DNA of 64,000 bases from contig NIVC01003676.1 in the NCBI GenBank assembly GCA_002269645.1, forward strand, positions 1 to 64,000, read 5' to 3'. The notes under the pieces are model-generated. The model was not told where the DNA came from and searched no databases. It saw only the letters and a list, made by a program, of their open reading frames with translations. The stretch comes from Macrostomum lignano. Its lineage: Eukaryota. This document shows, piece after piece, positions 2,666 through 32,217 of the stretch (position 1 is its first letter; each line of letters starts with the position of its first letter). The position numbers and the translations under genes are program-made.

Positions 2666-3327
<662 letters not shown>

Positions 3328-3338
3328 TGTTCGGCCTA

Positions 3339-4799: not shown

Positions 4800-5380
4800 C
4801 AGGGGTGTCGCCATGGATTTGATGGTGGGGGGACAATGCCGAAAATCCTGCATGTACACTATTTAAAAAATCGGTGTTGTCAGCGTCATTTTGGCACCGC
4901 AGGCACTCAATTTAGCGCCACAGGCACTCATTTTAGCGCCGCAGGCACTCATTTTGGTGCCGCAGGCACTCATTTTAGCGCCGCAGACACTCATTTTAGC
5001 GCCGCAGACACTCATTTTAGCGCCGCAGGCACTCATTTTGGCGCCACAGGCACTCATTTTGGCGCCGCAGACACTCATTTTAGCGCCGCAGACACTCATT
5101 TTAGCGCCGCAGACACTCATTTTAGCGCCGCAGACACTCATTTTAGCGCCGCAGGCACTCATTTTGGCGCCACAGGCACTCATTTTGGCGCCGCAGACAC
5201 TCATTTTAGCGCCGCAGACACTCATTTTTGCGCCGCAGACAAGCCCTCAAGCAAAATTATTGATTTCCACAACGGTTCACAAGGTTGGGGGGGACACAAA
5301 GCATCGGCATGTTCCCCCATAGTTTTTTCTAGGGTCGGACATATCCCCCCTGTCCCCTACCCTCGGTGGCGACGCCCCTG
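4800..5380. mobile_element. MITE with GC-rich TIR (CAGGGG(T/C)GTCGCCA), hAT-like ends, containing a 21-bp minisatellite (~4888-5240)
   Basis: CAGGGGTGTCGCCA at 4800 and TGGCGACGCCCCTG ending at 5380. A shorter copy sits at the paralogous site (~32023-32135) and a reversed partial copy at ~62898-63180. No TSD found. Confidence 0.6.
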
Positions 5381-5519
5381 CCCCCCCCTCCCAATAAGTA
5401 CATGTAGCTCGTAAATACGCGTTTTACAGATATTGTGCGGTAATTACTTAGTGGTTATTTAAAATTTGAAAAATAGTATATATAGAGAGAGACAGTAACA
5501 TTTTCTAGCATTAAGATAG

Positions 5520-6177
5520 CATTTTATAGCGACACATTAGCCACAGATTACCAACAAATTAGCAACAGATTAGCAACAGACTAGCAACACATTAGCAACA
5601 CATTAGCAAGACATTATCAAAAGATTAGCAACACATTAGCAACAGATTAGCAACACATTACCAAAAGATTAGCAACAGATTAGCAACACATTAGCAACAC
5701 ATTAGCAACAGGTTAGCAACAGATAAGCAACAGATTAGCAACACATTACCAAAAAAGCAAACAGATTAGCAAAACATTAGCAACAGATAAGCAACAGATT
5801 AGCAACACATTAGCAACACATTAGCAACAGATTAGCAACAGATTAGCAACAGATTAGCAACAGATAAGCAACAGATTAGCAACACATTAGCAACACATTA
5901 GCAACAGATAAGCAACAGATTAGCAACAGATTAGCAACAGATTAGCAACAGATTAGCAACACATTAGCAACACATTAGCAACAGATAAGCAACACATTAG
6001 CAACACATTAGCAACAGATAAGCAACAGATTAGCAACAGATTAGCAACAGATTAGCAACAAATTAGCAACAGATTAGCAACAGATTAGCAACAGATTAGC
6101 AACAGATTAGCAACAGATTAGCAACACATTAGCAACACATTAGCAACAGATTAGCAACAAATTAGCAACAGATTATC
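5520..6177. repeat. 11-bp minisatellite (TTAGCAACAGA); paralogous array at ~34140-34400
   Basis: Directly visible; lies just 3' of each lectin gene. Confidence 0.97.
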
Positions 6178-6270: not shown

Positions 6271-9200
6271 TTAGTAGGTGTACAGAGCCAAAAGCATGGC
6301 ATCAGCATTGCCGGCCACAGCAGCAAAGCTGCTCGGAATGACCGTTGACTGAAACAGCCAGCATTCGAGTGTGGCAGTCCTGAACAGGACGAACAGGCAG
6401 TTGGTCATCTGCGAGCAGCGCAGCAGGCATTCAATATCCGACCTCATTTGAGTCAGAGCAGCAATAAGGCTGGTCGATGTCATCGAATAGCTTGGTTGGA
6501 TTGCATTGGCAACGACTTCGTTGTCCGGGACGGCTAAAAAAATGATTATTTCATTTATTAGAATTGACAGCTGAGCAAAAACACATTATTAAAGAATGGC
6601 AACATTAGTGTATCCCCAGTTGCACTGGTGCAGCAGGCTTTGGTTTAATTGTTTATTTCATTTATAGCATTTTGCAGTCAAGTTTGAACTGCGGGCATTC
6701 AAATTAGACAAGAAGGGAAGAGCCAAATTTCAGAATCCGTCCCCAAGTCAAGCAGAACTTTATGTCTGTGGCACAAACTGAAACACACTGACGGGCACTC
6801 AATTTAGACAACGGGCATTCAAATTAGACAAGCAGCGGAAAGTCTATGTGTGCCAGAGAGAAAGACCATGGACAATCCGATTCGTCGCTATGCAAGAATT
6901 TCCAGAGAGAAGCGTGACCTCATTATTGGGGCATGCCAACGTGGTGACTCTGTGGCTGAAATTGCCAACATGTTGGATGTCAAGAGATCATCAGTGTACA
7001 ACAGACGCAACACGATCTTGAATTGCCCAGCCAATGCGCCTGAGAACTTGTCTAATTTGAATGCCCCTTGTCTAAATTGAGTGCCCACCAGTGTGATTTT
7101 GTCTAGGCCATAGATAGCATTTGTGCCAGCAGTGAGATCTGGTCAAGCGTCTAATTTGAATGCCCGCAGTTCAAACTTGACTGCAAAATGCTATAGTTGA
7201 AACTCAGTCTATGGCAATAAATGTTTGTATAGCTTTAGCACTGGTATAAATTGGGAATATATACCATTTCTCTCCCTTATAGAAGAACCAAGACATTGGC
7301 CATAGACAATCAAATTGGGCATGTGCAGTTAATAATAAAACAAAGTTCATCATCTGAAAACAGCAGCTTCATTACGGGCGCATTAGCCATAGACTATAAG
7401 CTCCTGTAGCATTTCATGAAAAATATAATGTAAGGCATATGGAGGCATATTGTCCCATGACTGAGCGTGCGTTGAAAAAATTCTTCGTCACAGCACTGTA
7501 CTTTATTATCTGCACGCTTTTTGTTCCTGCAGCTAGGAGTTCCTACCATAGACATTTTCTTACTGACCATAGACAATTTCTTGCTATGCACAAGCTTCTG
7601 ATCGTGAGTTTGGCCCCATATGGATTCATTATTTCCTAACGGCATGAGAAGCGGCATGACGGCCGGTGAGATCTCCCACCATTTGGAGTGGGCCGACGTT
7701 GAGAAGCTTGTGGACGAGCAGTTACGTCTCCAAGCAACTAGTGTGGACGACAACGAGGAGCTGAACCGCCTATTCGACTCCATCCCTGATTTAAACGACG
7801 ACTTGGCCTGGATCGACCTTGACGCATCAATCTGGGCGCTGGAGCAAGAGACCGATGTCAAATCGTCTAAGAAGCATGAGGCTCAATACGTCGCGAAATT
7901 TTGGTGTTAAATTCTGCTGTGTTTTTCCCCTTTGTTTTAATAAACGTTGCTTGCAAACTGCTGTTTTTTGTGGCGCTGTACGCTATTATCTGCGCGCTTT
8001 TTCATTATCTGCACGCTTTTTCATTATCTGCACGCTTTTTTCATTATCTGCACGCTTTTTCATTATCTGCACGCTTTTTTCATTATCTGCACGCTTTTTC
8101 ATTATCTGCACGCTTTTTTCGTTTTCTGCACGCTTTTTCATTATCTGCACGCTTTTTTCATTATCTGCACGCTTTTTCATTATCTGCACGCTTTTTTCGT
8201 TTTCTGCACGCTTTTTTCGTTTTCTGCACGCTTTTTTGGCTACGCCGCATAAGGGTTGGGCCATAGACTGTAAGATTAATGCACGCTTTTTGGACCAAAA
8301 ACGCACGCTCAGTCATGGGACAGTATGAAATACATACTTCATCACTTGATTCAGCCACTCTCTCAACAGTGACTGCCGCTCAACAGGTTAATTCCCGATC
8401 TTAAATTTTAAATTCGATTCTTTTCGAATATCCTACTTACCCACGTAGACGTCAACCTCGCAGAAATTGAAGTAGACCTGAGTGCTGGCGGTCAGACCAG
8501 TTCGATTCTTGTACAGAGCCAGGTAGCGACCAACGACAGGGGACGAGCAGGTCAGGCTGATAGGATTTGTAGCATCGGTGGGCGCTCCAGTAAAGTAGAA
8601 ACAACGTTTGAATAGGTTCTCGCTGAAGCTGGACCAAGCGGCCGCGTCCGATGATATGCCTGCGAGTGGCAGGAGAATTTCGGTGAGCTAAAGCTGGTTG
8701 CAAATTTTATGGAGCATGGATTAAGATAGCAGAATTTTCCTACCTAGGAATGAGTCATCTTGTCGATATCTGTAATTTTTGTCCAAGCTACAGTGAGAAC
8801 TGTAAAATACTGAGAACTGTAATCCTGAGAACTGTAAAATCCCAAGAACTGTAAAATCCCGAGAACTTAGGACCTCAGGACTGCAATCCTGAGAACCGTA
8901 ATCCTGAGAACAGTAATCCTGAGAACTGCAATCCTGAGAAATGAGGACCTGAAGACTGTAATCCTTAGAAACTGTAACTTAAAAAATAGTACTGTGATGA
9001 TGGAAACAATGCCATTATCAGTCCTGTTTAAGAGAAACTTTCCTAGAAAGAAATTAAGACAACGAAAGCAGCTCAACTCACTCACCAAGGCTAATCTGGG
9101 TAAACCGAACCTCGTCCGCGCTATCCAGTCGGTTCCAGACATTGACCCCGGCGATTCGGTAGGACTGCAGCAGGTCCAGCATCCACCAGGGCACCGTGTC

Positions 9201-10893
9201 GCTGCCAGAGTTGCACACGCACTGAGCGGCGTTCACATAATGCCCATCAGTGTTGCCATTGTAGGCCAGCTCGGCAGACTGCACCGAAGTTAGCTGGGAC
9301 GAAATTTTTGCCGGTAGAAACTTCGGCATCAGGACGGTTCGAGCTGAGCGTTGGGACGAGTTGTGTCGTTATAGAATTTATGACCTTCTAGACTAAAGTC
9401 TTGCAGAGCCGACAGCTCAGCCGCAGCCATTGCACGGCGGATCTGAAGGCTGCGTACGGCTGTTCAGTCCAAGGACTGGGGAGGAAGGGTCGCCACACAC
9501 AGTCTCAATTACCCCAGCTAATGCTGGCACCCATTTTATAGCTGGTTGAACTGAAACAATGCAGATTTAAGCGTCTTGCTCAAGGACACAAGTTGTTCCC
9601 AGTGAGATTGAGAATCGAACCCCCGACTTTCGAGTCGTAAGGACTGACAATCAGAAAGTCAAGGGAGACTGTACATATGATAGCCAAGGACCACTAGAAG
9701 AAGATGGACGGGACACTTCGTTTCTTGGAAAATTTATTAAAGGCTGATTTTCACGGAAAAATGCACTAGCGAGATAGGAACTTTTCACTTTTTCCACTTT
9801 AAAATGGTGATAGCTTTTTATTAGAAGCAGATACAAAGCTCTTCTTTTGATATAACTTACAAAACATGTTGCTTCGACGGATTTAATAAAGATTTTTTTC
9901 ATGAATAATTGATCTTCATATTATTTTAGTTACTAGCTATATATCATGCAGCAATATAGTCTAAAGCTAACTAGTGACTAACTTGAATTTTACAATATCT
10001 GTTTAATCGAATGCATCTATTTATTAGCAATATATCATTAAAAAACTGTTGGCTATAATTATATGCCCAATTCACTGCTTATTCATTATAGTTTTATACT
10101 TTTTATATAAAATAAGTGTATTTAAATATGTAGCTACCTTAGATATACTACTAGCTATGCCTAGACCTGGGCATATAATTATAGCCAACAGTTTTTTAAT
10201 GATATATTGCTAATAAATAGATGCATTCGATTAAACAGATATTGTAAAATTCAAGTTAGTCACTAGTTAGCTTTAGACTATATTGCTGCATGATATAGCT
10301 AGCTAGTAACTAAAAGTCTAAAATAATATGAAGATCAATTATTCATGAAAAAATCTTGATAAAATCCGTCGAAGCAACATGTTTTGTAAGTTATATCAAA
10401 AGAAGAGCTTTGTATCTGCTTCTAATAAACAGCTATCACCATTTAAAAGTGAAAAAAGTGAAAAGTTCCTATCTCGCTAGTGCATTTTTCCGTGAAAATC
10501 AGCCTTTTAATAAATTTTCCAAGAAACGAAGTGTCCCGTCCTTTTTCTTTTAGTGTTCCTTGATGATAGCTCGTATATCAGTGGTAAGCCGCGAATGGGC
10601 ATGACAGAGACTTTGGCCATAGACTACGCCTGTCTATGTCCATAGTTTCGTATTGATAGGCTGAGTCGCATTCTGAGTCTTCAATCATAGTCTATGGCCA
10701 TGTTCTTATTAACACCGCTCGTGGGGGAGCGTATAAGGGGGAACCTCGTTTGGTTTGACAGTTAATTCTCATTTAGATCGTCAAAAGCGATGCAACGACT
10801 AGATAGCTAGCTGTAAAAAATGATAAACTCACCGTCCAGACAGACGAAAGAAATATTTAACAAAGTAAACAGAAGCAGAACGAGTTTCTCCAT
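6271..10893 (-). CDS. Secreted F-type lectin (fucolectin/FTP, F5/8-type-C fold) + PAN/Apple domain protein, copy A, 4 exons, 266 aa
   Basis: Exons 10893-10833 (signal peptide MEKLVLLLFTLLNISFVCLD, donor GTGAGT), 9343-9086 (NGNTDGHY..PWWMLDL..VNVWNRLD), 8659-8441 (CSSPVVGRYL..FNFCEVDVYV, donor GTAAGT) and 6533-6271 (ECLLRCSQMTNCLFVLF..ECWLF). All introns are GT-AG phase 1. The total of 801 nt is open. Confidence 0.85.
6663..7195 (+). mobile_element. Internally deleted Tc1/mariner-IS630-type element (~47-bp TIR, TA-flanked) retaining an HTH fragment
   Basis: TATAGCATTTTGCAGTCAAGTTTGAACTGCGGGCATTCAAATTAGAC at 6663-6709 and its exact reverse complement at 7149-7195. Subterminal GGGCATTCAAATTAGACAA repeats. 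ORF 6850-7080 reads RDLIIGACQRGDSVAEIANMLDVKRSSVYN (HTH). Confidence 0.8.
7450..8323. mobile_element. TA-flanked MITE with ~24-bp TIR, internal 20-bp minisatellite (~7985-8237) and an acidic ORF fragment (7620-7910)
   Basis: TGTCCCATGACTGAGCGTGCGTT (7451) and AACGCACGCTCAGTCATGGGACA (to 8322). Absent at the paralogous position (~37125-37145). Confidence 0.7.
8795..8980. repeat. 15-bp minisatellite (GAGAACTGTAATCCT) in lectin intron 2; paralogous array at ~37605-37745
   Basis: Directly visible. Confidence 0.9.
9408..9640 (-). mobile_element. tRNA-derived SINE copy, 5'-truncated, same family as 13931-14223
   Basis: Reverse complement matches the 13931 copy (B box GGTTCGATTC, GTGTCCTTGAGCAAGAC central domain, CAGCCGTACGCAGCCTTCAG tail). 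Confidence 0.8.
9685..10562. mobile_element. Foldback MITE with ~385-bp TIRs and 8-bp TSD (P- or hAT-superfamily type)
   Basis: Arms 9685-10069 and 10168-10562 are reverse complements; termini CAAGGA...TCCTTG; ATGATAGC duplicated at 9677-9684 and 10563-10570. Confidence 0.88.
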
Positions 10894-13930: not shown

Positions 13931-14223
13931 ATAGTAGTTAAACCGTCGGACTCGCGACTTGAAGGTCGGGGGTTCGATTCCCAGTTCCACTAGGAAAGAT
14001 TTGTGTCCCTGAGCAAGACACTTAACTCTGCATTGCTTCAGTTCACCCAGCTGTAAAATGGGTGCCAGCATTAGCTGGGGTAATTGAGGCTGTGTGTGGC
14101 GACCCCCCAGTCCTTGGACTGAACAGCCGTACGCAGCCTTCAGATGCGCGGCGCAAATAGCTGCGGCTGAGCTGTCGGTTGCACATCTGGCCCAATTAGG
14201 GGAAGGTGTAATCAATTATTATT
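13931..14223 (+). mobile_element. tRNA-derived SINE with CORE/Meta-like central domain
   Basis: Head with GGTTCGATTCCC B box, then TGTGTCCCTGAGCAAGACACTTAAC...CAGCTGTAAAATGGGTGCC, ending in an ATTATTATT tail. Confidence 0.8.
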
Positions 14224-14573
14224 CAACGATTATTACAGCTGAAAGTTGAGAAAAATTACCTATACACTGCGATAGTTTTTTTAAGATTTTTGCAACTTCA
14301 TTGGTTACATATGTATAAAAAATATAGCAATAAATTTCAGTTTTTCTTTACAATTCACGTTAGTTCTCATACCTGCAAGAAATTATTTTTCTATTTTATT
14401 CAAGTCCTTGTACATGTTAGTGTTAGCTCGTACCGTACTCACCGATAATTTTGTTTTCCTAAAACTACTAATAGTAGTAAAGATAATTTTGAAAACTTTC
14501 TTCTCAAATATAAATTCTATTATTAGTAGCAAGTGTCATTGTCGATAGCAGGGTTTACAAAGTTTTCTAGCCG

Positions 14574-14803
14574 GGTGTTTAATTGCTATAGCCGGGTGTT
14601 TAATTGCTATAGCCGGGTGTTTAATTGCTATATCCGGGTGTTTAATTGCTATAGCCGGGTGTTTAAATGCTATAGCCGGGTGTTTAATTGCTATAGCCGG
14701 GTGTTTAATTGCTATAGCCGGGTGTTTAATTGCTATATCCGGGTGTTTAATTGCTATAGCCGGGTGTTTAATTGCTATAGCCGGGTGTTTAATTGCTATA
14801 GCT
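14574..14803. repeat. 21-bp minisatellite (GGGTGTTTAATTGCTATAGCC), left flank of the Polinton
   Basis: The same unit resumes in the same orientation at 24675-24890. Confidence 0.97.
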
Positions 14804-14912
14804 AGTAGTAAGGGAAATGTGGACTCTGTCGCAGGAATTTCCGTGGGAAAACCACGGGCCTATAGTGTGTAAACATAGCGCACATGTAAATGCATTGGTG
14901 GACTCTGCCGCA

Positions 14913-15336
14913 GGGCATAAATACATTCTCACCTGCATTGATGTTTTATCTAAATTTGCAATGGCCAGAGCACTGAAGTCTAAGAGCGCGGTAAAAGTAA
15001 AATCTGCGTTTGAGAGCATGCTGAAGAGCTCAAAGCGGCAGCTGCGCACTGGTCCGCACAGATCAGGGAAAGGAGTTTGTCAACGCAATTTTTCGCCAGT
15101 TCTGCATAGACCGGGGGATTCTGGCGTTTCCAACTAGCAGTGAGCAAAAAGCAGCCATCATTGAAAGATGGAATCGAACTTTAAAAAGCAAGATGTGGCG
15201 TTACTTTACTCACAACAGCACTCTACAACGGCTTGATGTGCTGCCTAAACTGGTCAAGTCCTATAACAATACTTTCCACAGAAGCATCAAGACTGCACCA
15301 ATGAATGTTAGCAAAGCAAACGAGACTGAAGTGTGG
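14913..15336 (+). pseudogene. Polinton retroviral-like (rve) integrase fragment, N-terminus with the first catalytic Asp deleted, one frameshift
   Basis: KYILTCIDVLSKFAMARALKSK / VRTDQGKEF / AAIIERWNRTLKSKMWRYFTH..LVKSYNNTFHRSIKTAP. Confidence 0.88.
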
Positions 15337-15337
15337 A

Positions 15338-15552
15338 TTCTTCATAAAGCGATTCTTCTCAAGGCGATTCTTCTCATGATAATTCTTCTCAATGTGATGC
15401 TTCTCAAGTTGATTCTTCTCAAGGGGATTTTTCTCAAGGTGATTCTTCTCCAGGTGATTCTTCATAAGGCGATTCTTCTCAAGGCGATTCTTCTCATGAT
15501 AATTCTTCTCAATGTGATTCTTCTCAAGGTGATTCTTTTCAAGGCGATTCTC
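15338..15552. repeat. 15-bp minisatellite (GATTCTTCTCAAGGT) at the integrase breakpoint
   Basis: Directly visible. Confidence 0.9.
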
Positions 15553-16555
15553 ATTATTGACATTAATTTTCCTAAGTCTAATGACGTCACCGTACTTAGT
15601 GCATGATAGCTCATCGTAGGGTTTGCTTTTCTGAACTAATTATAAGGTGTTTCGGCGTTGTGAACTTTCGGTCTAATGAAACCAAAACTCGAGTCAGCTT
15701 AGAATAAAATAAAGTTTTTGTGTCCAGTGTGCGAGCACTCATGGACACGGCAGTATAAAGAATTTATGATAGCGCAAAAATTTAAATAGGAAAGAACGTG
15801 CAAAAGCTTAGCTGGTACACAGAAAAACTCATACAGGGTATTTAGTAAAAAAAATAGTTTAACTACTACAAGTAGCAGTATATGCTGGAGAAACTAGAAA
15901 TCTAGGACGTTTCGAAACCAATAACTACTTCATAATCTATAGACAATTGCAGCTTGTTAATTGGTTTCGAAGTGCTTTAACTTAACAGGTACTCGTAGTA
16001 GCTAACTGCAGGAATCTCAAGGATCGATCGCTATTGCACATCGGAACCCTGACCTGCTGAGGTTCAACTCGAACAAGTCTCCACCTGCGACTACTACGAG
16101 AAAGATTGCTAAGTACACAAGCCAGTGCGAGATCTATAGACGTTGCATTTAAGGCAGGAAAGATATCTAAAAGAGAGATCTGAAAAGTACATAGTCCATA
16201 GTCGATTTAAAACAAATTAAAAGGAAACTAAAAATGTGTAGTTTAAACATAAAATCTAAAAACGTTCGAGACTTTCAAAAAGTACGAAATTTGAAATTCA
16301 AAAGAAAGATATTTCTTTTATGATGACAAGGTCAGAATGACAAGAATGAAAATGCTATCCTTTTTGGTCACAGAAACAGCGCAACGAAATCGAACTCGGC
16401 GCATTTTGAGCACAATTGATCAGAATTGCACGGCTTCTAGTCAAAAATCCATTAATGAAAGAAAATTATCTGCAAAAAGTAGAATATCTTCAACTTCGAA
16501 ATCATACGAAATGTATCAGAAAGCTAAAATTCTGAATCAAATTCAATTAAAATCA

Positions 16556-18576
16556 TCATTCCACATCCGGAAAGTTGATGAAGTGCCGGCGAGGCCAATC
16601 AGATTTGCTGATCACCTGCGTCGCCTCAGTCTGAGAATTAAAGCTGCTCTGCTGCCGGTCCGACGAAGCGCGGCCGCTGAACAGCCGACTGCCGCCTGTG
16701 ATCGGCAGGTAGCCGCCAATCAGGATTCGCTTCCGCTTACCCAACCACCGGCCCAGCATCCTGCTCAACAAACTCCTGATGCAGCTGTAGTCTCGCTCGA
16801 TAATCTCGGCCACAGTCAGCATGATCAAGTACCTGTTCTCTACCTCGTGCTCGATGACGTGGTTCACGGCCGAGGACAGAACTCCGACCACGAAGTTGAT
16901 GAATAGGATGGGCACGAACAGGACGTAGGTCACGTGGGTGATGAGGAGGTCGATCCGGTCGATCTCGGGCACGTAGAGGCTGGTGTCGATAATGTTGAGG
17001 GACACCAGGAAGGTCGTGTAGAATTCCTTTATGTAGCCACTTAGTGCGTTAGCATTTTTAGTTGAATTAGACACGAGAGACATGGGTTCGCTTCCGTGGA
17101 ACATGCGCGCAAATATTGCCGTAATACAGAGGTAGAACATGAAAAACATGAGAAAAGTTGTTAAACTACGATGAAAACTGCTCATTACGGCGGATATTGA
17201 CGGCAGAAGGCGCATGAACCAGAAAAGCAGGCTTAGACTCATTAGAAGAAGAAGTCTTATGCCAGAACCTTGCACAGTGTAGACCGCCTGATTGAACAGA
17301 GCGCAGCTACTTCGAATGTCGACGTGCAGCCAAAGGAGCAGCGCAGCAGTGGGCAGCGACACGGAGCATGGCAGCAGCCACGACAGCAGATCTCTGTAGC
17401 TCCTTCGGGGCCGCCTTGGGTAGCCGACCTTCCTTCTGTTTTTAAATTATTGATTTTCCATTACAAAGAATAAACAGTCATGTATGCACAATATAGTCTA
17501 ACTTTGGTTACTGACCTAAACATTTCCTTTCTTAGCAGACCTGCTGCTGCGAAGAGCAGAAAGAGCAGAGAGCTTGACAGGCATGTAGAAAGTACGAGAA
17601 GAAAGGATGCAGGATTCTCCACCCCTTGCGATGACGCGCTAAAACAGTATTTAAAAAATAGGGCCTTCATACCCGGACCTGAAAAGATGGTGACGGACAG
17701 CAGTTGCAAGAAAATAAGACAAGCAATAACTATTATGATCCACCGGTTGCGGTCGTACAGCGCCTCGACCCAGCGCCTCCACAGGAAGCCGTTGCGGAAC
17801 ACGCCTGCTGCCTTCAGCTCCGCCAGGGTGGCCTGGCTGTACACGTCGAGCAGCACGCAGATCGGGCTGGTGAAGAACGCCGGGTTCTCGCCGAACCAGT
17901 CGGTCACATCGACGCTCACTCGCTCTCGAATGCCCACCGAGTCCGAGTGCACCTCGCTGCTGGCCAGGTGGTGCAGCATGATGTACTCGACATGACCGGC
18001 CAGTCCGAGGAACACGCCCCAGCTCATTGGCGTCATGCCTCGGCTGCTGACCTGCAGCATCTCGGCCTGCTGTTGTCTAGTGAACAGGCGGCGGTGAAAG
18101 AGCTCGACGAGATCTCGGCCGGTACTGCCGCAGTCCGTCGGCTGCTCCGTGCGCTGCTCCGTCCCGGACATGAAGCGGACGGCGCTCAGCAGCATGTGGT
18201 AGGCCGTGAAGCCTCGCTCTCTGATCTTAGAAAAGTCCACCGTGTCCTTTCCGCTGTCCGAGGTCTCGTGCATGAGGCGCAGACACCGCTGAGCGTTGTA
18301 GAACATGGCGACGAAGAACGGGTTGGTGGGGAACGGAATGTCGCTGTCGTCCTGCTCCGGATCGCCGGACCCGATCCAGTCGGCTTGGTCTCGAGCTCGA
18401 GCTCCTCGGTGGTCGGAGCTGGAGAGAAATGCGGCCCAGTCGGAGGGTCCCAGAGAGTCGCGGAACTCTTTGAGGTCGTCAGCGTTGTCGTCGGCGATGC
18501 AACGGACGAACGCGAGCCAGTCGTCAGTGTCCGTCAGGAACTCCTTAGCATCCAATTGATCGGTTTCTTTTTCCAT
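16556..18576 (-). CDS. Divergent TRPV-like ankyrin/6-TM cation channel, 2 exons, ~646 aa
   Basis: Exons 18576-17516 and 17435-16556; an 80-nt phase-2 intron (GTCAGT...AAAACAG) joins the two track ORFs in frame. Ankyrin-like GFTAYHML and GMTPMSWGVFLG; hydrophobic helices; S6-like HVTYVLFVPILFINFVVGVLSSAVNHV; TRP-helix-like ENRYLIMLTVAEIIER. Confidence 0.72.
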
Positions 18577-20278
18577 TACTGAGCAAGATCGCAATTCTGC
18601 GCTGCTTTATCGCTTTTTTTAATGTGCCGTGAGTCTGGGAAATTTAGACCCGCTCGACATATTAATAGAGATTCAGCCGCATTTGGTACACCAGTTTTCC
18701 AGACTTTCCAAAGTCAACAGCTGAATCGTTTTTATCTGATTAGAAAACGTGTGAACTGCCTAGCATTTGATTCTTTTTAACTAAACAAAAGGCTGTGCGT
18801 GTGCAAATTTACCCAGTGCCAAGCAAATTCATTACTGTTTTCTCCCACATTAATTAATATCATGACAATTTTTGGCGTTGTTTGCCATGCATTAATGCTA
18901 TTTACTTGGAATTACAATTACCAACAGGAACGAGTTACGAGCGTATTGTCTCTTTTCATGGTCTAATTTTATACGATTACAGACAAAATCACTTTGGGTG
19001 TTGTTAGGGAGGGGGGAGGTTTGGACGCCTCAATCAATCCGATTTGACCTCTTTGTTAAGCCTGGTTGGTGCCCGATCTGGGAATGTTTCTGTTGTCTCC
19101 CGTGCTGGGTCACACAGCCTGCTTGTAATCACCCTGAAGTCTCGCTAGCTATTTCGCGATGTGAAACCTTGTATATATGTACGTTGTACGTTGATAATTT
19201 TAGTTGTTGTCGCTTTGTCGTAGTGTCAAGGATGCTTAACCTTTGTAGATGTGAAACTTAGATCTGTGGAATTTTGACCTGAAGTCGGATGCTTCTTAAT
19301 TGCGATACAAAATTAAGCCGTTACACATGTGCATATACCTATTGTTACGACAAAGTGATCTTCACTAGCTACTACGCTCTCGAGCATAGCGGACGAACGT
19401 ATGTTTGCGTCAGACTGACGTTGGAACCTGAGCGGGTGGATCGCGTAGCCTAACTCGTTCAGTCCGCGTCATATGAGTCCCTGTTACCGTACACACTCGT
19501 TTTACGGTTCCAAAAGGAAATAGTGCAAAACGGAAACTCACTTTTACTCGGCCTTGCGTGTCATATGTGGGTGACTTTAGCGTCGTTGGCTATTATTGAA
19601 TGTATACTTTCGGATCTAAAGTTTTTTTATCAGACTGTTCTAAAGGTAATATCGGTGAAGCCAATAGGCGCCCTCTCTCTCGCTTATCACATCATTATTT
19701 TTATATAGATACATGTATACAATTACTACTTAGTCTTTTAGGGTCAGGGATTCGGCAATAGAGCAGCCGGGAAACTTATAATTGGCTAGGAAACGTGAAA
19801 ACATGACAAGGCGCGGGGCTTATGGGAAAAAATTGGGTTGCACACAGAAGGGCAGCCAATCAGAGTTGGGTACGGAGCGGGCCGGGGTAGAAAGAATGGG
19901 GAGGGGGCAGGCAGCTAGGCTGGGGGGTTGATGCAAACCCCCCTGGGGGGGGGGGGTTGGTGCAAACACGTGGGCCGATGCGGTATGTGGGCGATATGTC
20001 GGGTACACTTGTCGAAAACTAGAGATTGCTCATCAGTACTAATGTACCCGAGCACAATACTAATTAAGATGTTTATATGTTATGCTGTTTTTAACGATAA
20101 TGTGCGTTAATATTTGAAGAAGCTGCTGCCAAGCCAGATTTTCCTGCCGACTATTTAATTGAAACGGCTACTGGACATTCCCCTCCAGCGTTCCCCCTCG
20201 GTGGTGTTTCCTCTGCGTCTCTAAAAAGAAAAATGAAATGGGCAGCGGCACAAGAAAGAACTTTAGTGGCATTACTAG

Positions 20279-20880
20279 CAATCAGCGCCCCCCGTTGGGG
20301 AGCCAAAAAATGCAGTACAAGTTTTTTTTAATAAACTACATGTAAGCGTCTCTTTGCATTGTACATTGTAAGCCTTGACATGTCAGAAAATCCCACCACA
20401 AGCCTTAGCATATCAACCCCCTTGACATATTAGCAATGCCCAATAAGCCTTGAAATCCTAAAAAATCTGTCAACCTTCTAACCCTAACCCTAGCCCTAAC
20501 CCTAAACCTAACCCTAACCCTAACCCTAACCCTAACCCTAAAGCATTGACATTTCAGTAATTCTCTCCAACAGTCATTATAGCACTACAGCATTATAGCG
20601 ATTCCCAGCAAGCCTCGACATCGTAGGGATTTCCAAATGAATCTCTTAACTTCGATATGAAGCTTCTTTTATTTTTTACATTACGCTTTTTCTATCAGCG
20701 ATCCCTCCCGTGAGGAGCCAACAAATAATGAAAAAAAGTTTTCAATAGACTACATGTAGCTTCTGACTTTAGCCTTGACATCTCATTTATTCCCCCATGA
20801 GCCTTGACATCTCAGCTATTCCCCCCGTAAGCCTTGACATGTCAGCAATGCCCCCCATAAACCTTTGAAATGGGCGTGTC
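20279..20880. repeat. Dispersed repeat family with AGCCTTGACAT subrepeats and an interstitial (TAACCC)n tract (~20479-20541); degenerate third copy at ~21735-21845
   Basis: Two related units at ~20279-20480 and ~20695-20880; about 10 TAACCC-like hexamers. Confidence 0.7.
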
Positions 20881-21866
20881 CTGCGGTTTAGGCTACTGGT
20901 TTACTGGTTTCTTTTTAATTTGATTAATCTGAGCTCGAGAGACTCCGGGCTTAGATTAAGCTGGAAGATTTCCTAGCTACCTTAAATTGAATGAATAGTT
21001 GTTACGATCTAGGTTACTTTGCTCTACTAATCTGCTATTACGTACTTTTATTTGGTAGGTCGCTGCCACCAGACTAATGCCCCTTATAATTAATGTTAAA
21101 TCAAAATAAATGAGACAAGAGTCAATTTCATATAAGATTATTTAGATCAAACAAACAAAAGAAATATTATTAAACCGAATATGCAAAGAAAGTACACAAT
21201 TAATCCCTATGTTAGCACCACGGTAGACTCCGATTTCTTATTTAGACCAATGGTAGACTCCTTTAGTCTTTTCCTATGTTACTTGATTTATATATAATCC
21301 TATTCTCGGTAGACTCCGTTGTGACTAAGTGGTAGACTCCTTCTTAGCCTCCCTATTTTACCCCTTAGAATTTTATCCTTAACTTACCCTTGATTTCCTT
21401 AAGCTTCTGTATTAAATTTTGAAAGGGAGACTCCCTTATTTTTTATTTTAGAATTGAGATCTTTGTCTCTATAAATATTGTCCTGATGGACGGTCCTGAA
21501 CGGATATGCTTGGACTGATTGTCCCGAACGGATGCTTTTCCCGAGGCTAAACAGCCTTTTACTAATGGAGGAACCCGCTAAGACTCGAATTCCCACAACT
21601 TCAGATATTTCCCCGAGGGTGAACTACTAACAGTAGCGTAAAAGCAAAACTGCTTATTCTAGAATTCATGCTACTAAAATAATTCATCCCGACGAATGGC
21701 AAACGCCTTAGCAAAACTGCTTGAAACTAAACCCCCTACTACACCTTGATATCTGAAAAATCCCCTGTTAACCTTGAAACCCGCTAAAATCTAACCCTCA
21801 ACCCAAACCTGACCTAAACCTAACTTTAACCCAACCTATAAATCCACATATGTTGATATTCACCCC

Positions 21867-23039
21867 GTGAACTCTATTGCTACTAACTCACCTATTGAAT
21901 TCGACTGTCATCCATCGGCTGATGAGTACACTGATCTGCTGAGCTCATTCCTGTATATTCGCTGTCGCCTAGTCCGGCTTGGCGGGGCTTTGATGAGGGA
22001 GGAGGTTCGGAATGCCGATGGAGTTGTCACTGAGCACCCAGAAAGCTTTGTCCTGTCTACGGCATTCTCAGATGTAATCGTGAGCATCAACCAGCGAATT
22101 GTATCAGGCGGAGACCAGCTCTACCCCTACCATGCCTACCTAAAAGCTCTCATGAGCTCATCCGATGCTCAGCAGTTAAAGTTCTACCCCGCCGGATTCC
22201 TGGAACCCGAAACTGCTGCTGAGGGGCATGCCGAGAGCCACAGGGAGTCCCGCTGGGTGGAGTATGCGGGACCACTGCTCAGCGACATCTTCCAGTGTCC
22301 TGTTCTGCTGCTGAACAATTTACACCTGCACATCAAGCTGATGCCCAGCGATGCTGCATTCGCCATTCGAACCCCAGATGATAACAACACAGCCTACCGA
22401 ATGGAAATCTCCCACTGCATTCTGAACCTGCGCCGAGTCAAAGTGGCGCCTCACATTAGCCTAGCGCATGAGCAGGGACTGACCAATCAGAATTACTTTA
22501 CCCCATCGAGCCAACTGAAATGCAAAACTTTATTCTACCCCAGGGAATTCAGTCAAAAAAACATTGAAGGATTCACCCATGGCAAACTGCCGAAGTTCGT
22601 TATGCTGGTCTTCGTGAACCACCTAGCCTTCAATGGCCATCACCATTCCAGCCCCTTCGAGTTCCAGAGCTTCAACCTCAGCCAGCTAGCACTAAAGAAA
22701 GGTGGTGAAGCCATGTGCCACGCTGCATTTGCACCTGAGAATAATTCATTCGTGAGAGAGTATTTGCACTACCTGAAAAGCTGTCAGTCAGCCAGCCCTA
22801 CCAACACGGTTCCGTGGGTCCCCTACCAGTTGTTCTCCAACGGCAACACAGCTTTCGCATTCGATCTCACGCCTGAGGGAGCGGCCCTGTGGTACGGACA
22901 GAAGGAGGGCAATTTGCGGCTGGAGATTCGCTTCCGACAGGCCCTGGAGGAGCCTGTATCTCTGATTGTTATGTGCCTGTATGACTCACTGATTGAGGTC
23001 ACGAAGCACAGGGAGATTCTGCTAGATTTTTCATCCTAG
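21867..23039 (+). CDS. Polinton major capsid protein (double jelly-roll), probably N-terminally truncated
   Basis: PIEFDC..DEYTDLLSSFLYIRCRL, LYPYHAYLK, GPLLSDIFQ..LLNNLHLHIKL, GKLPKFVMLVFV..AFNG....SPFEFQSFNL, AFAFDLTP, GNLRLEIRF. Open for 390 codons; the track start is GTG, not ATG. Confidence 0.88.
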   Translation: MNSIATNSPIEFDCHPSADEYTDLLSSFLYIRCRLVRLGGALMREEVRNADGVVTEHPESFVLSTAFSDVIVSINQRIVSGGDQLYPYHAYLKALMSSSDAQQLKFYPAGFLEPETAAEGHAESHRESRWVEYAGPLLSDIFQCPVLLLNNLHLHIKLMPSDAAFAIRTPDDNNTAYRMEISHCILNLRRVKVAPHISLAHEQGLTNQNYFTPSSQLKCKTLFYPREFSQKNIEGFTHGKLPKFVMLVFVNHLAFNGHHHSSPFEFQSFNLSQLALKKGGEAMCHAAFAPENNSFVREYLHYLKSCQSASPTNTVPWVPYQLFSNGNTAFAFDLTPEGAALWYGQKEGNLRLEIRFRQALEEPVSLIVMCLYDSLIEVTKHREILLDFSS

Positions 23040-23062
23040 GAGTACGCTGGCGCAACGCTAAT

Positions 23063-23581
23063 ATGGATGCTTTTCAATTGCTTAAACTGGCTAAAAGCTT
23101 TTTACCTCAAAATAACTATTTAATTATTGTCTTGAATTTAATAAATAAAACATCTTATGCTTTAAACTTTATTCAGCGAGCAACTCTCAAAAGAAATTTA
23201 TCTCGATGTAAGTTTATTTTCTTTCTGCTTCAGTACGGCTCATCCTTCGGTCACTGGGTGGTTTGTTATGCTGATAAGGAGAATTCGGGCTGGGACTCAA
23301 GCACTTTAGAGATTATTCACGGAGCACTGAAATCCTTTTGGTATTCTCCATTCTACTTACGTGGCAACGTGAATCGAATTCAGAGCTGCGACTCTGCTAA
23401 ATGCGGTTTGTTCTGTCTCTATTTTTCTATCAAAAGTTTCATTTCAAGCACGTTTGCATGGAGGGTTCTGCGGCACCTCCATGCAAATCAGCAGAGCCAC
23501 TTGAATGAAAGAATGCTGCAAAGGTTTGAGAGTTGCTTAAGAAAAAGAAATTCAATTAGACTTTTAAAATTGAGGATTTAG
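23063..23581 (+). CDS. Polinton adenain-like cysteine maturation protease
   Basis: GHWVVCY...WDS...NRIQSCDSAKCGLFCLYF (His/Asp/Gln/Cys layout); located between MCP and ATPase. Confidence 0.8.
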   Translation: MDAFQLLKLAKSFLPQNNYLIIVLNLINKTSYALNFIQRATLKRNLSRCKFIFFLLQYGSSFGHWVVCYADKENSGWDSSTLEIIHGALKSFWYSPFYLRGNVNRIQSCDSAKCGLFCLYFSIKSFISSTFAWRVLRHLHANQQSHLNERMLQRFESCLRKRNSIRLLKLRI

Positions 23582-23592
23582 CTCAACAGGCA

Positions 23593-24246
23593 ATGGAAAC
23601 ACGTGAGCGGATAAACTGTTATGATGTGCGCCTGCGACAGGGAAGCTGCATGATTGTCAGCGGACCTACAAATGCAGGAAAGACAACCTTCGTGAAACAT
23701 CTGATACAATACAAGGATGTCATGTTTGATGTGAAGCCTGGGAGAGTTCTGTGGTACTACGGGATTTCACAAGCAGCACACTCTGAGCTCAGCAGTCTCG
23801 GTGTGCACCTGCAGCAGGGATTTCCCAGCAGTATCGAGACCGCACTGAGACCCAATGACCTGGTTGTATTTGATGACCTGATTGAAGAAACTTCCAATTC
23901 TGCTGCTATGCGAAATGTTTTCACTAGAATTGCCCATAATTTGCCCTGCTTTCTGGTTATTCTGACCCAAAATGTATTTTTTAAAGGGAAGGAGTTGCGA
24001 ACAATGAGTCTGAATGCGATGTACTTTGTGATCATGAAGAACCCCAGAGACCAGCTGCAGATTGCAGCGCTGGGCAGGCAGTGCTTTGCTCAGAAGCCCG
24101 GCTTTCTGAGGTCAGTGCTCAAGCACGTGACCTCGCACGGCAGGGGAGCCTACCTGCTCCTGGATTTTCACCCTTCCACCCCTGATGAGCTGCGCGTCCG
24201 GGCTCGAATCCTGCCCAATCAGCGACCCCACCTTGTTTACACTTAA
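23593..24246 (+). CDS. Polinton A32/FtsK-family DNA packaging ATPase
   Basis: Walker A GPTNAGKT, Walker B LVVFDD, VILTQN, SLNAMY..KNPRD, AYLLLD. Confidence 0.93.
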   Translation: METRERINCYDVRLRQGSCMIVSGPTNAGKTTFVKHLIQYKDVMFDVKPGRVLWYYGISQAAHSELSSLGVHLQQGFPSSIETALRPNDLVVFDDLIEETSNSAAMRNVFTRIAHNLPCFLVILTQNVFFKGKELRTMSLNAMYFVIMKNPRDQLQIAALGRQCFAQKPGFLRSVLKHVTSHGRGAYLLLDFHPSTPDELRVRARILPNQRPHLVYT

Positions 24247-24335
24247 GAATAACAGCCGAGATTTTGCCATTAGGCCGGTGGTTTTCCCACGGAAATTCCT
24301 GCGGCAGAGTCCACATTTCCCCTACTACTACAGCT

Positions 24336-24651
24336 AGTTTTACCGAACGGAAGACTTGAGTTCGGGCCAATCCACGCTCGCTTGTCCTCCCAGATACTGA
24401 GAGCGAGCTTACGTTGCTCAATGGTGAAAACGCGATGTTTCTCACTTCCAATTCGACGAACAGTGAGCGACAGCTTTGAAGCCCCCTTGAAAATCTTTAC
24501 GTAGTCGTCGTGGGAGACTTCATTCTTCAGCACGCTTCGTTGGATGCCTTTTGCTTTTGCTTTGCATACCGCCGAGCTTTCAGCGAGGAAAGAATAGAGC
24601 TTGGGCCTTAGCGCCGAGAATTGATTTGAGAAATATTGAGAAAATTGTATT
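24336..24651 (-). pseudogene. C-terminal fragment of protein-primed family B DNA polymerase (pPolB)
   Basis: FSALRPKLYSF..KAKGIQRSVLK..DDYVKIF..RIGSEKHRVFTIEQRKLALSIWEDKR..SLPFG. Confidence 0.85.
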
Positions 24652-24674
24652 GACTCCACATTTCCCCTACTACT

Positions 24675-24890
24675 ATAGCTGAGTGTTTAATTGCTATATC
24701 TGGGTGTTTAATTGCTATAGCTGGGTGTTTAATTGCTATAGCTGGGTGTTTAATTGCTATAGCAGGGTGTTTAATTCCTATAGCTGGGTGTTTAATTGCT
24801 ATTGCTGGGTGTTTAATCGCTATGGCTGGGTGTTTAATTGCTATAGCTGGGTGTTTAATTGCTATAGCCGGATGTTTAATCGCTAGCCGG
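24675..24890. repeat. 21-bp minisatellite, right flank of the Polinton (same unit as 14574-14803)
   Basis: GGGTGTTTAATTGCTATAGC(T/C) units. Confidence 0.96.
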
Positions 24891-25665: not shown

Positions 25666-25841
25666 TTGGTAGTAAAATTTAAACCCTATAAGCTTTCCCT
25701 AAACTTCAAGACATTTGACAGAAGAGTTGATTAATACGAGCGTATTTCGTTTTTTAGTTGACGACAATTTCAACCCTTCAGGCCGACATCACCACGGAGC
25801 GTCAGCACCTGCTATCAAAATCAGAGGTGCAGCCGACAACG

Positions 25842-27557
25842 ATGGAAATCTCTACGGTGTTCAAGCTGAAGTGCTTCATCTATGCGATGTTGCTGATTGC
25901 CCTAGGCTTTGTAACTACTATTGTTGAAACGCAGGACTTCTTAGAGGACGTCGAAAAAACTGATACAAGCGATCGAGCTGCCAGAACTCGAGGCATCATT
26001 AAATGGATTTGCTTTGGTATTAAATGCGCCTACCTGCTTCCCGCCATAGCTGGACTTCTGTACCTGCAGAGGTGGGCCATAGTGCAAGGCAAACTGCCTC
26101 TAGTTGCATTGCAGGTGTGCGACCATGGGTCTCAATCAGACTTGTTGCAACAAAAAGCAGGAGTTTTGCTTCTGAAGAGCGTTAATCGATATGTCTACCT
26201 GCCAAGGAGGCTGAACAGCTCGCCATCCATGCTCATAATCTTAACGTCACTATTATTCGCGCTATTCTCTTGCTTGTCCATCATATTCGAAATGGCATGC
26301 GGAGTTATTGCGTCAATTGATCGTGCAGAATTTTTACGCAAAAACCTGCCCGACGTATTCGGATGCATGATTTTGCTAATTTTTATTATAACTCAGGCGA
26401 GGTTTTCTATTCTATACGGCAGGGTTAGCTTCCAATGGAAGCTGCGCGTAGCCTGCTTAGTTTTTGCCCACGTCATTGCCACAAACATTTCCGCCTGGTT
26501 CTTCAGTGTTGGCTTCGAATTGAGTGAAATAATTTCCAATGAAACTGCCCACGGGGAGTTTGCTGGCTCCTATTGTACAATGTTTCCAATCATTCGAAGT
26601 CTCTATCCGTTCTTAACTGAGTACTACGTGATGAGCGCGCTCATCGTATTCGGATTTTCGGCCAATGTTGGAAAACTCGGCGTTGCGATTAAAGAAGCTG
26701 CAGCTGGAGGAATTCGAATTAGTACCGAGAGCATCCGGGATCTGCTGACAAAATCGGGCTCACCGCGCACAGGACACACTTGGCGTGCTGAGCGCTCTAT
26801 GATGAGGCGGTACTCCAGTCGAATTTCCGTTGGCGTCGGCTTACTGCTCATCACGCTAGCTGCCGCTATTTTTCTCAGATATCAAAGCACAGACAAGATA
26901 TACCCGCAGGTAGTGTTCTACTGCATCCTGATCCTGCTATACTCGAGCGGTATGGCCTGCAACTGTCTGCTACTAGGAGCAATTAGTACGAGTAGAACTA
27001 GCTGTCAAAGGTTTAGCAGTATTCACGGCACTGATCGGATTCTACTGTGGCTAGGCGCTCTAGCGATCGCAGTGAACAATATCTACACCATCGGGATGAG
27101 TGTTGCTCAAATTTTACGGGAGTATAATGTCTCGTATAAATTACCTGGATTGATCCTAAGCGCGGTCTGTTCTTGTATTAATATCGGTCAGAGCTTGCTG
27201 CAAGTGTTTACTCTGGAGTGCACTTTGCTCTGCAGGTTCAGCTCCGGCAAGAATCAATACGGTCAGGCTATGTTGACAGTTCTCATGATAGTAAATGCTG
27301 CCCAGTGGCTCGACAACACAATCTGCTTTAGTTTCTTCTTTCCTAAAAATCAGCTAAACGATGCTCGAGTTCTTTCTCTTCTAACTGTACCCCTGCAGGT
27401 GTTTTTCCGTTTCCACTCGATTGCCTGCATGCACGACATTAAGAAGCATTGTAACGATTTGCACGCGGCCCATTCAGACAATCATTCGGCACAAGTGGCC
27501 GAACAAGCTGTTGAGCGTCTCAATGAAGAACCAATAGACTTTCCTGACGACAGCTAG
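25842..27557 (+). CDS. Otopetrin-like multi-pass proton channel, intronless, ~571 aa
   Basis: About 12 hydrophobic segments; LYPFLTEYY (otopetrin YPF-x-x-EY motif); C-terminal VPLQVFFRFHSIACM (otopetrin FYRxHS motif). First ATG at 25842. Confidence 0.8.
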   Translation: MEISTVFKLKCFIYAMLLIALGFVTTIVETQDFLEDVEKTDTSDRAARTRGIIKWICFGIKCAYLLPAIAGLLYLQRWAIVQGKLPLVALQVCDHGSQSDLLQQKAGVLLLKSVNRYVYLPRRLNSSPSMLIILTSLLFALFSCLSIIFEMACGVIASIDRAEFLRKNLPDVFGCMILLIFIITQARFSILYGRVSFQWKLRVACLVFAHVIATNISAWFFSVGFELSEIISNETAHGEFAGSYCTMFPIIRSLYPFLTEYYVMSALIVFGFSANVGKLGVAIKEAAAGGIRISTESIRDLLTKSGSPRTGHTWRAERSMMRRYSSRISVGVGLLLITLAAAIFLRYQSTDKIYPQVVFYCILILLYSSGMACNCLLLGAISTSRTSCQRFSSIHGTDRILLWLGALAIAVNNIYTIGMSVAQILREYNVSYKLPGLILSAVCSCINIGQSLLQVFTLECTLLCRFSSGKNQYGQAMLTVLMIVNAAQWLDNTICFSFFFPKNQLNDARVLSLLTVPLQVFFRFHSIACMHDIKKHCNDLHAAHSDNHSAQVAEQAVERLNEEPIDFPDDS

Positions 27558-31601: not shown

Positions 31602-32217
31602 GTATATAAATGGGTGCTTTGAAAAGAACGTTAGTGCACTAATAAACAACGTACAGATGTGACACAAGCACTCACTAATAGACAACAGGTGTGACACACA
31701 AGCACTCACTAATAGACAACAGGTGTGACACACAAGCACTCACTAATAGACAACAGGTGTGACACACAAGCACTCACTAATAGACAGCAGATGTGACACA
31801 AGCGCTCACTAATAGAGATGTGACACACAAGCACTCACTAATAGACAACAGGTGTGACACACAAGCACTCACTAATAGACAACAGATGTGACACACAAGC
31901 ACTCACTAATAGACAACAGGTGTGACACACAAGCACTCACTAATAGACAACAGGTGTGACACACAAGCACTCATTAATAGACATATTAGGAGTCGACTCG
32001 ATAATCTCTTGCATGCTTACAGAGGCGTCACAAGGTGGGGTGGGGGAGACAAAGCATTGACATGTTTCTTATAGCTTTTGCTTTATCTGGGGGAGGGACA
32101 TATCCCCCAGACCCCCCTCGGTGGCGACGCCTCAGCTCGCTTAATAACTACAATACATGTAGATAGTTTTTACGGATATTGTGCGGTAACGTTCTTTGTG
32201 GTATTTTAAAAGTTGTA

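Follow-up and report, generated by a model that had tools for sequence, protein, structure and literature searches.

A stretch of 64,000 nt of Macrostomum lignano DNA (GCA_002269645.1, contig NIVC01003676.1), here called the window, contains a 9.9-kb decayed Polinton (14804-24674) that encloses a TRPV-like channel gene (Table 1). As the original prediction had described, inverted termini beginning with AGTAGT start at 14804 and end, inverted, at 24674, an exact 6-bp ATAGCT duplication lies directly outside them, and the same 21-bp minisatellite array continues on both flanks. The prediction had also cautioned that two insertions at the same phase of a tandem repeat would mimic a single target site duplication (TSD). 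Apart from the duplicated copy, no unit of the left array reads ATAGCT (0 of 10; eight read ATAGCC and two ATATCC), whereas the right array has it in 5 of its 10 units; phase alone therefore does not account for the duplication. The outer ends and the TSD are those of one genuine Polinton insertion.

Table 1. Features of the element and its flanks, in window positions (., no strand)
Feature	Position	Strand	Remarks
21-bp minisatellite, left part of target array	14568..14797	.	ATAGCC-type units
Left copy of 6-bp target duplication, ATAGCT	14798..14803	+	
Left TIR	14804..14915	+	First 112 of the family's 135 bp
Internal integrase (rve) fragment	14913..15338	+	Family positions 1469-1893; two frames; cut at both ends
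Host segment from resident TRPV-like cluster	15336..20276	.	Begins inside a 15-bp minisatellite (15336-15551)
TRPV-like gene, exon 2	16556..17435	-	Transmembrane and pore part; Ion_trans E 8.9e-5
TRPV-like gene, intron	17436..17515	-	80 nt, GT-AG
TRPV-like gene, exon 1	17516..18576	-	1061 nt from ATG
Non-autonomous Helitron, 3' part	20275..20865	-	Ends in CTAG (20275-20278) with T next to it; has a short hairpin plus 30-bp and telomere-like repeats
Solo LTR (TG...CA) in Helitron	20866..21743	.	CCTT duplicated at both sides
Helitron, continued	21748..21842	-	Cut off, 5' end missing; AAA at 21840-21842 common to capsid gene
Double-jelly-roll capsid gene	21840..23039	+	First ~22 codons gone; resumes at family position 3597
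Adenovirus-type cysteine protease frame	22997..23581	+	Family copy: Peptidase_C5 E 1.4e-4
A32-like packaging ATPase frame	23560..24246	+	Atlas feature A32 cluster 0.98
Inner right end, last 59 bp of TIR	24271..24329	-	ACAGCT comes next; interpreted as the terminus of a second Polinton that lies inside the polymerase tail
Putative protein-primed polymerase gene, 270-bp tail	24343..24612	-	Family positions 8986-9255
Outer right end, 23-bp TIR stub	24652..24674	-	After 39-bp filler
Right copy of target duplication, ATAGCT	24675..24680	+	
21-bp minisatellite, right part	24681..24885	.	ATAGCT-type units in majority

Judged by its sequence, the element is a member of a young Polinton family, whose 135-bp terminal inverted repeat (TIR) begins with AGT and has 53 matches in the genome, 48 of them away from this locus. 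We mapped 10 other TIR-bounded copies for comparison. Family copies are 12 to 16.5 kb long, and the 6-bp TSD is exact in 5 of the 7 other paired copies, with 5 of 6 bases agreeing in the remaining 2. The family may be undescribed; a narrow literature search on Macrostomum and Polinton returned Tc1/mariner work only.

From the Polinton gene set, the integrase (as a fragment reaching to 15338, as predicted), capsid, protease and ATPase frames are present, and the polymerase is reduced to its tail. The integrase fragment is 97% identical to the family copy, and its profile match (E 0.002-0.008) falls below the cut-off; the integrase of the family copy matches rve with an E value of 2.7e-16. The capsid frame, which also has a 40-bp deletion and a garbled stretch, scores 0.98 for the double-jelly-roll (DJR) cluster feature of the atlas (recognition 2020, under the 2300 mark), and its single-sequence fold was unusable (pLDDT 30). 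The family polymerase C-terminal frame matches DNA_pol_B_2 at E 3.9e-4, below the cut-off, in a scan that ran without the extra 3.8 kb of the longer copies. A PHROGs search gave nothing useful.

Both ends of the element are reduced. Two further contigs, C1186 and C1426, represent the same locus as the window, each with different deletions, and in all three contigs family positions 113-1468 are deleted after the left TIR. The 59-bp TIR originally paired with 24674 is in fact the inner right end: this is the inverted partner of 14804, and only 23 bp match at 24674. The inner end is probably that of a second, nested Polinton, and in C1186 and C1426 its region derives from a diverged sub-lineage (~71% identity). 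The original prediction had named halves with their own TSDs or partner TIRs as a sign of two independent remnants; half of this is seen, in that the 59-bp right TIR seemingly comes from a second element. We also considered the inner end as the mutated TSD of a tandem copy, a reading disfavoured because ACAGCT sits at this point in the family polymerase tail and because one C1426 block consists of the stub without the inner TIR.

The haplotype contigs place the host DNA to the base. In C1186, family positions 1469-3600 are followed by the host segment, and in the window the Helitron is followed by family position 3597. Both capsid junctions coincide at one AAAT, at capsid codon ~22-23; therefore, a piece of ~6-6.5 kb entered the capsid gene without target duplication and with 3-nt microhomology at both ends (AAT is common to the donor and AAA to other Helitron copies). 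The cargo does not lie between the integrase and capsid genes, as first described, but interrupts the capsid gene itself. Each capsid junction was found once in the assembly, and the TIR-integrase, stub and donor-Helitron junctions occur on this locus's contigs only, where they are identical base for base. A genome search for other TIR copies enclosing cargo, as had been proposed, confined the cargo and all five junctions to the contigs of this one locus. Nor did a search of the assembly by both flanks yield the empty minisatellite site that was to be looked for in other haplotypes, or a cargo-free Polinton allele: element and cargo occur together on each of the three informative contigs, and a fourth, C1118, stops short of the site.

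The public read matches listed are all short-read contigs, with no RNA match among them. Among the matches listed, no public short-read contig spans the stretch or bridges 15338, 20275, 21840 or 24271, and the loose ends of read contigs at 14913, 15338, 21838-21840 and 24612 are normal family or Helitron continuations. Unique cargo bins are several-fold shallower than Polinton bins in 4 of 4 runs, depth here being no measure of copy number.

The open, spliced 646-aa TRPV-like gene of the original prediction is borne out: the frame is intact across the GT-AG intron, the spliced junction has the same spacing as in the paralogues, and the intron donor matches the splice point in public gene model P0002. 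Its predicted function as a channel comes from fold. A model (pLDDT 65) of the paralogue C516, which aligns to the two exons at 25% and 31% identity, suggests a channel fold of six helices together with helical repeats at the N terminus, closest to TRPV, and all Foldseek matches listed for this model are TRPV chains (best E 1.3e-5). The best PDB matches of the TRPV-like family profile are to TRPV2 (E 0.02), a phmmer search of exon 2 against PDB gave 0 matches, and the TRPV-like family gave no Pfam ankyrin match. The paralogue model resembles TRPV1/2/5/6 in fold, identity is only 10-14%, and the M. lignano family is a lineage-specific expansion with 63 matches in the genome. The gene copy looks functional. 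In a public run that may be RNA, by guess, one contig reads through the intron without splicing; we draw no inference on expression from it.

The segment that carries this gene matches C890:377994-382935 and C1332:67544-72291 at 95.5-97% identity. These two contigs are colinear with each other, hold the segment's own neighbours (paralogues and the continuation of the minisatellite) and have no unique flank in common with the window. Comparison of family DNA and protein found no family-like Polinton DNA at the donor regions; an integrase-like protein match (25% identity) ~10 kb from the C890 gene lacks a family DNA match and was judged unrelated. All 20 candidates were scored for cargo DNA, and only 5 contigs have it at full length: three belong to this locus and two to the donor cluster. 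It is absent from 57 family loci, as covered by partial stretches of copies, not all copies. The locus's three contigs have 11 substitutions in common relative to both donors. The channel gene is a non-resident duplicate inside the Polinton, with its source cluster elsewhere.

The rest of the insert is of different origin. Of the 6.5 kb that had been called host-like, the channel-gene segment keeps this description, and ~1.6 kb is a Helitron piece with a solo LTR. The Helitron's CTAG followed by T recurs in 7 of 8 other copies in which the end was found (9 examined), and its hairpin alone is not significant (z -0.63). TC-type 5' ends are present in 4 of 9 fetched copies and absent from the window's piece. 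Copies of the LTR occur in pairs 8.1 kb apart on C38, C871 and C1322, and a joint skipping 20860-21743 was found in two public read runs. Neither donor contig has the Helitron, and both read G followed by T at its position; neither is therefore the exact template. The cargo copy of C1426 holds a further, 32-kb Helitron with TC...CTAG ends, a clean target between A and T, and PIF1 remnants.

Within the channel gene, pN/pS is 0.21 and haplotype-specific changes number 14 synonymous to 8 non-synonymous (binomial p 7e-5 versus neutrality). The Polinton genes have 17 synonymous to 26 non-synonymous haplotype-specific changes, and 25 to 14 among family copies. These ratios point to purifying selection on the channel copy while the Polinton genes decay; selection may have preserved the copy, or gene conversion with its source may have done so. 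Divergence from the nearest family copy is 1.8-3.1% for the Polinton parts, and that of the cargo from the donors is 0.9-2.9%; changes common to the haplotypes are patchy (protease 11, integrase 5, ATPase 0 and capsid 0), with changes next to gaps (nine of 20 shared ones) set aside. With divergences so similar and shared changes so patchy, dating does not separate integration from capture. In an exon 2 tree of 8 rows (C621, C1310 and C2711 were left out as short or without a DNA match), enclosed and donor copies group at 100/99; inside this group the tree gives no supported order and does not set the enclosed copies apart as one clade.

The segment was probably inserted into an already integrated Polinton, taking together the two routes by which this could have happened. 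Between them we lean towards capture by break filling after integration, with the Polinton as landing site and not as carrier. A Polinton of the young family integrated into the minisatellite, making the ATAGCT duplication that is seen at its ends. The capsid gene would then have broken at the run of A followed by T where both junctions lie, and the break would have been filled with a ~6-kb chromosomal copy in which one member of the TRPV-like cluster was joined to part of a Helitron, the joining using the observed 3-nt microhomologies at both ends with no target base lost or duplicated. The repair mechanism, and its timing after integration, we infer. Decay in place followed, haplotype by haplotype, and its traces are the solo LTR, the second Polinton end, the 32-kb Helitron of C1426 and the deletions; the outcome would be a dispersed gene duplicate of the ordinary kind, lying in a transposon that is dead. 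We count as favoring capture after integration the restriction of cargo and junctions to one locus, the contrast in substitution ratios between channel and Polinton genes, and the nesting seen in integrated copies of this family, as a LINE in the C711 copy and, at this locus, as the Helitron, the LTR and the second Polinton end. With neither a cargo-free nor an empty allele in the assembly, capture after integration is a likely order and no more.

Alternatively, the segment may have entered the Polinton elsewhere or during extrachromosomal replication, and the capsid-broken element may have transposed once with the gene and then decayed. A true TSD common to the outer ends, cargo on all three haplotype contigs and the about equal age of integration and capture agree with such a move. 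Furthermore, a family derivative that has lost the bulk of the capsid region was mapped to two independent sites (C3033; C201/C2466) whose targets differ in sequence, so that capsid loss is no bar to transposition, and butterfly Polintons are reported to be still mobile after LINE or LTR uptake (bioRxiv 10.1101/2025.02.07.637071). However, the cargo is at one locus only among the 53 TIR matches, no source copy with cargo and no other copy with the derivative's junctions were found, and the present ends retain 112 and 23 of 135 bp. We consider this history unlikely. The original idea of a unit that inserted once with the channel aboard holds for the single Polinton insertion and for the gene as a duplicate inside it, and its arrival aboard is unsupported. 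The proposed role as a vehicle for channel genes is not supported, with cargo and junctions at a single locus and a capsid gene broken by the insert, and for horizontal transfer of the gene there is no evidence at all. Nothing shows that the Polinton ever carried the channel gene anywhere.

The second route into a resident Polinton would make the Helitron the carrier: lying upstream of the channel gene in a donor haplotype, it would have bypassed its own 3' end, inserted with the gene between A and T, and later lost its 5' part. Gene and Helitron do share a strand, with the gene directly 3' of the hairpin and CTAG end; A and T without duplication is a possible reading of the target; and such Helitrons are active and large here, as the element in C1426 indicates. 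The end-bypass model is described in PMC6544945 and PMC6431247. Yet the 5' TC end, which PMC6544945 gives as required for transposition, is missing, and the piece is cut exactly at the target site, such that any later deletion must have halted no more than 3 bases away. The donors, without the Helitron, have G and T, not A and T, at the position, the hairpin by itself is weak (z as above), and PMC6431247 describes it as exceptionally rare for Helitrons to capture whole genes. We therefore regard a Helitron carrier as rather improbable.

A repeat-driven mis-join of Polinton pieces with the TRPV cluster is very improbable. In its favor, tandem repeats crowd the region, the element's interior differs between the three contigs, the tandem duplication in C1426 could be two joined haplotypes, and the window's capsid junction was found once, its contiguity resting on the assembly. 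Against this, three separately assembled contigs with shared flanks all have the cargo inside the element, with three junctions identical; their 11 common substitutions relative to both donors, and capsid junctions on different contigs that are complementary to within 3 bases, also speak against a mis-join. That the channel gene belongs to this site and simply has an independent Polinton remnant on each side, as the two right ends and the diverged sub-lineage of the inner one might suggest, is already largely refuted and hardly credible, since the segment's neighbors are on C890 and C1332 with no unique flank shared with the window, in family coordinates the Polinton parts to the left and right join up at 3597-3600, and a single split minisatellite surrounds the whole element.

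It is doubtful that a Polinton gave up a working capsid gene for an intact sensory-channel gene and its upstream region, and moved with this cargo. If it did, the element would be an agent of functional gene duplication beyond the nematodes and would have helped to disperse the TRPV-like family, and the intact cellular genes known to travel on Mavericks would come to include a sensory channel, in a flatworm. Under the likelier reading, capture into an integrated copy, the locus shows at base resolution how cargo uptake begins, with a whole host gene that enters a Polinton and remains under selection. It also cautions against taking TIRs and a TSD on either side of a gene as proof of transport.

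Like Polintons/Mavericks (adintovirus-like), the family has AGT-tipped TIRs, a 6-bp TSD, an rve integrase, a putative protein-primed polymerase, a double-jelly-roll capsid protein, a C5 protease and an A32 ATPase; the window copy differs in having an integrase fragment, a polymerase tail, a capsid gene broken by host DNA and a composite right end. In the report on nematode Mavericks with wasp or krma cargo (10.1101/2022.07.12.499685), the cargo occupies a zone of 2-5 kb flanked by left TIR and integrase in elements that are largely complete, is met again in many elements and species, and disagrees with the species tree. The locus described here likewise has an intact, intron-containing host-type gene between TIRs, but at a single site, with a broken capsid gene, core genes in fragments and a donor in the same genome at 96-98% identity. 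Butterfly Polintons (10.1101/2025.02.07.637071) likewise contain foreign DNA with loss of a core gene; they amplified after insertion and carry transposons, whereas the flatworm locus is single-site and carries a cellular gene. Further parallels, in PMC6544945 and PMC6431247, are capture as filler DNA in templated break repair and Helitron 3' end-bypass capture, with short homology at both junctions, no TSD, and DNA from downstream of a Helitron 3' end; here, the acceptor is a Polinton, the captured DNA comprises a whole gene with its upstream region, and the Helitron is without its 5' end.

Polinton terminal inverted repeats (TIRs) start with AGT. As the original prediction held, an AGTAGT start at 14804, its inverse at 24674, ATAGCT outside both ends and a 21-bp array continuing on either side are all present. 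ATAGCT is a real duplication: none of the 10 other units of the left array carries it, against 5 of 10 in the right array. The two inverted termini stand, but the 59-bp inverted match reaches 24329, and 24674 itself matches over 23 bp only (the stub). Judged by TIR, target-site duplication and gene content, the element is a Polinton remnant.

The window is contig C3676 of the assembly (5269 contigs, 764 Mb), which we searched for relatives. A 32-base TIR motif gave 53 matches, 5 from this locus (control 0). Seven other TIR-paired copies (1.3-16.5 kb, 135-bp TIRs) have 6-bp duplications, exact in five and agreeing at 5/6 positions in the remaining two. The family is young, because nine copies differ by a median of 0.6% across the capsid-ATPase span. 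Family-copy frames matched the profiles rve, Peptidase_C5, DNA_pol_B_2 and PC4 (Peptidase_C5 and DNA_pol_B_2 below cut-off); the window capsid, with a 90% partial match named Macrostomum lignano, resembles the DJR cluster, and the window ATPase the A32 cluster. Copies on C3033, C2466 and C201 lack positions 2353-4719 (capsid region) of copy C84, used solely as a coordinate ruler; they occupy two or more distinct target sites and are a deletion derivative that spread.

Features of the locus and of related contigs (window positions unless a contig is named; C1186 and C1426 also carry the locus, C890 and C1332 the donor cluster)
Feature	Location	Description
MITE-like elements, left flank	9487-10562; 13955-14105	nested short inverted repeats
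Polinton remnant	14804-24674	
Left part along ruler		1-112, deletion, 1469-1893, insert (15336-21842), 3597-6066
Right part along ruler		deletion, final 59 bp of TIR, ACAGCT, 8986-9255, filler, 23-bp stub, ATAGCT
Donor-like segment	15336-20276	95.5-97% copy of segment on C890 and C1332
Otopetrin-family frame	25758-27557 (+)	just beyond element; intronless, 599 aa (PF03189, E 5.9e-11); partial duplicate in C1426, 4.7% diverged
Fold-back-like element	32212-34116	539-bp inverted repeats (99%) enclosing 18-bp minisatellite; 18-mer array recurs within C1426 Helitron
C1186 along ruler		1469-3600 retained ahead of cargo; Helitron telomere-like repeat, then straight to 8066
C1426 along ruler		1469-3138 retained; 32-kb Helitron within cargo; tandem duplication on right side
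32-kb Helitron	C1426:226105-257870	right after channel-gene stop codon; TC start, hairpin-CTAG end, clean A|T target, PIF1 helicase remnants
Expanded filler	C1186:148620-151307; C1426:207153-209665	39-bp filler before stub grown to 2.6-kb array, 25-bp unit
TRPV-like paralogues	C890 355-384 kb; C1332 64-88 kb	810-bp exon 1 part 96-99% alike; exon 2 ~80-85%
LINE within Polinton copy	L090:3400-8800 (stretch of C711)	LINE with endonuclease and reverse transcriptase

The ACAGCT after the inner right TIR is the same sequence as at that place in the family polymerase tail. One C1426 block reads through this position to the stub without the inner TIR, and in C1186 and C1426 the DNA ahead of the inner TIR is ~71% identical to the family. 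On the simplest reading, the inner right end would belong to another Polinton that nested in the first and has lost its left part.

The donor contigs are colinear; each has at least three TRPV-like genes or gene parts, and neither shows a DNA match to the Polinton family across the 70 kb retrieved. In line with the original prediction, the channel gene has an open frame of 646 codons; its intron is 80 nt long. It belongs to a lineage-specific TRPV-like expansion (63 matches in this genome, many in tandem clusters) whose members include one-intron and intronless genes; only two public protein relatives were found, both named Macrostomum lignano. For a paralogue's structure model, TRPV channels make up the whole structural hit list. 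The contrast between exons in the donor cluster suggests that exons have been shuffled there or that gene conversion has acted. Adjoining the gene's upstream side is the 3′ part of a Helitron absent from both donors; it ends in a hairpin-CTAG followed by T, lacks its 5′ end and contains a solo LTR. Solo LTRs have TG...CA ends and 4-6 bp duplications.

PMC12801592 describes M. lignano as a hidden allotetraploid whose assembly is redundant, which accounts for several contigs per locus. The window, C1186 and C1426 have both flanks in common (0-0.3% difference across several distant blocks), as well as the left end, stub and cargo; their interiors differ. Between window and C1186, ~13.6-25.4 kb differs by 1-4% throughout, versus 0-0.3% in distant flanks, as expected of structural polymorphism blocking recombination.

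The left junction in C1186 and the right junction in the window fall at the same AAAT (ruler 3597-3600), at roughly capsid codon 22-23. A single cut that neither removed nor duplicated a base explains both, indicating that the cargo entered one Polinton at its capsid gene. AAT at the left end is common to donor and target, and AAA at the right end also occurs in six of the other Helitron copies. The differing integrase-side junctions among contigs are probably later deletions.

The original prediction had the Polinton inserting once with the channel gene aboard. Full-length cargo DNA is on five contigs only (20/20 candidates scored) and is absent from all 57 family loci fetched. Close matches to the TIR-integrase (three), stub (four) and donor-Helitron (three) junctions all lie on this locus's contigs, excluding three extra 3-mismatch donor-Helitron matches that by appearance are other Helitron ends; each capsid junction was found once in the assembly. 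There is therefore no second insertion in this assembly. Taking two routes together, the cargo was probably captured after integration, and we lean slightly towards templated repair as the route. A single move with the cargo already aboard is unlikely. Consistent with it, a cargo-free or empty allele was sought in the assembly and neither was found; the two ages overlap, with Polinton parts diverging by 1.8-3.1% from the family and the cargo by 0.9-2.9% from the donors; the capsid-region deletion derivative is present at two sites with different targets; and polintons can remain mobile after acquiring other elements, in cases described in 10.1101/2025.02.07.637071. For capture after integration, nested insertion into integrated copies occurs in this genome, as the LINE in C711 illustrates. 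Helitron read-through, the other route to capture after integration, appears improbable. Overall, the locus is real and well resolved, and is most likely a duplicated gene whose landing site was a dying Polinton.

All five cargo/donor gene copies have an open frame (645-648 aa). Between window and C1186 the channel gene differs at 16 of 455 synonymous and 11 of 1483 non-synonymous sites (pN/pS 0.21; Fisher p 6e-5); haplotype-specific changes in the neighbouring Polinton genes number 26 non-synonymous and 17 synonymous. The channel-gene pattern could also have come from gene conversion involving the donor cluster; site patterns among channel copies partly conflict.

By cargo position and recurrence, the element is not a nematode-type cargo Maverick, whose cargo (10.1101/2022.07.12.499685) occupies the stretch from the left TIR to the integrase and is found again in other elements and other species. 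The insert works like the capture of filler DNA into a transposon, a process set out in PMC6544945.
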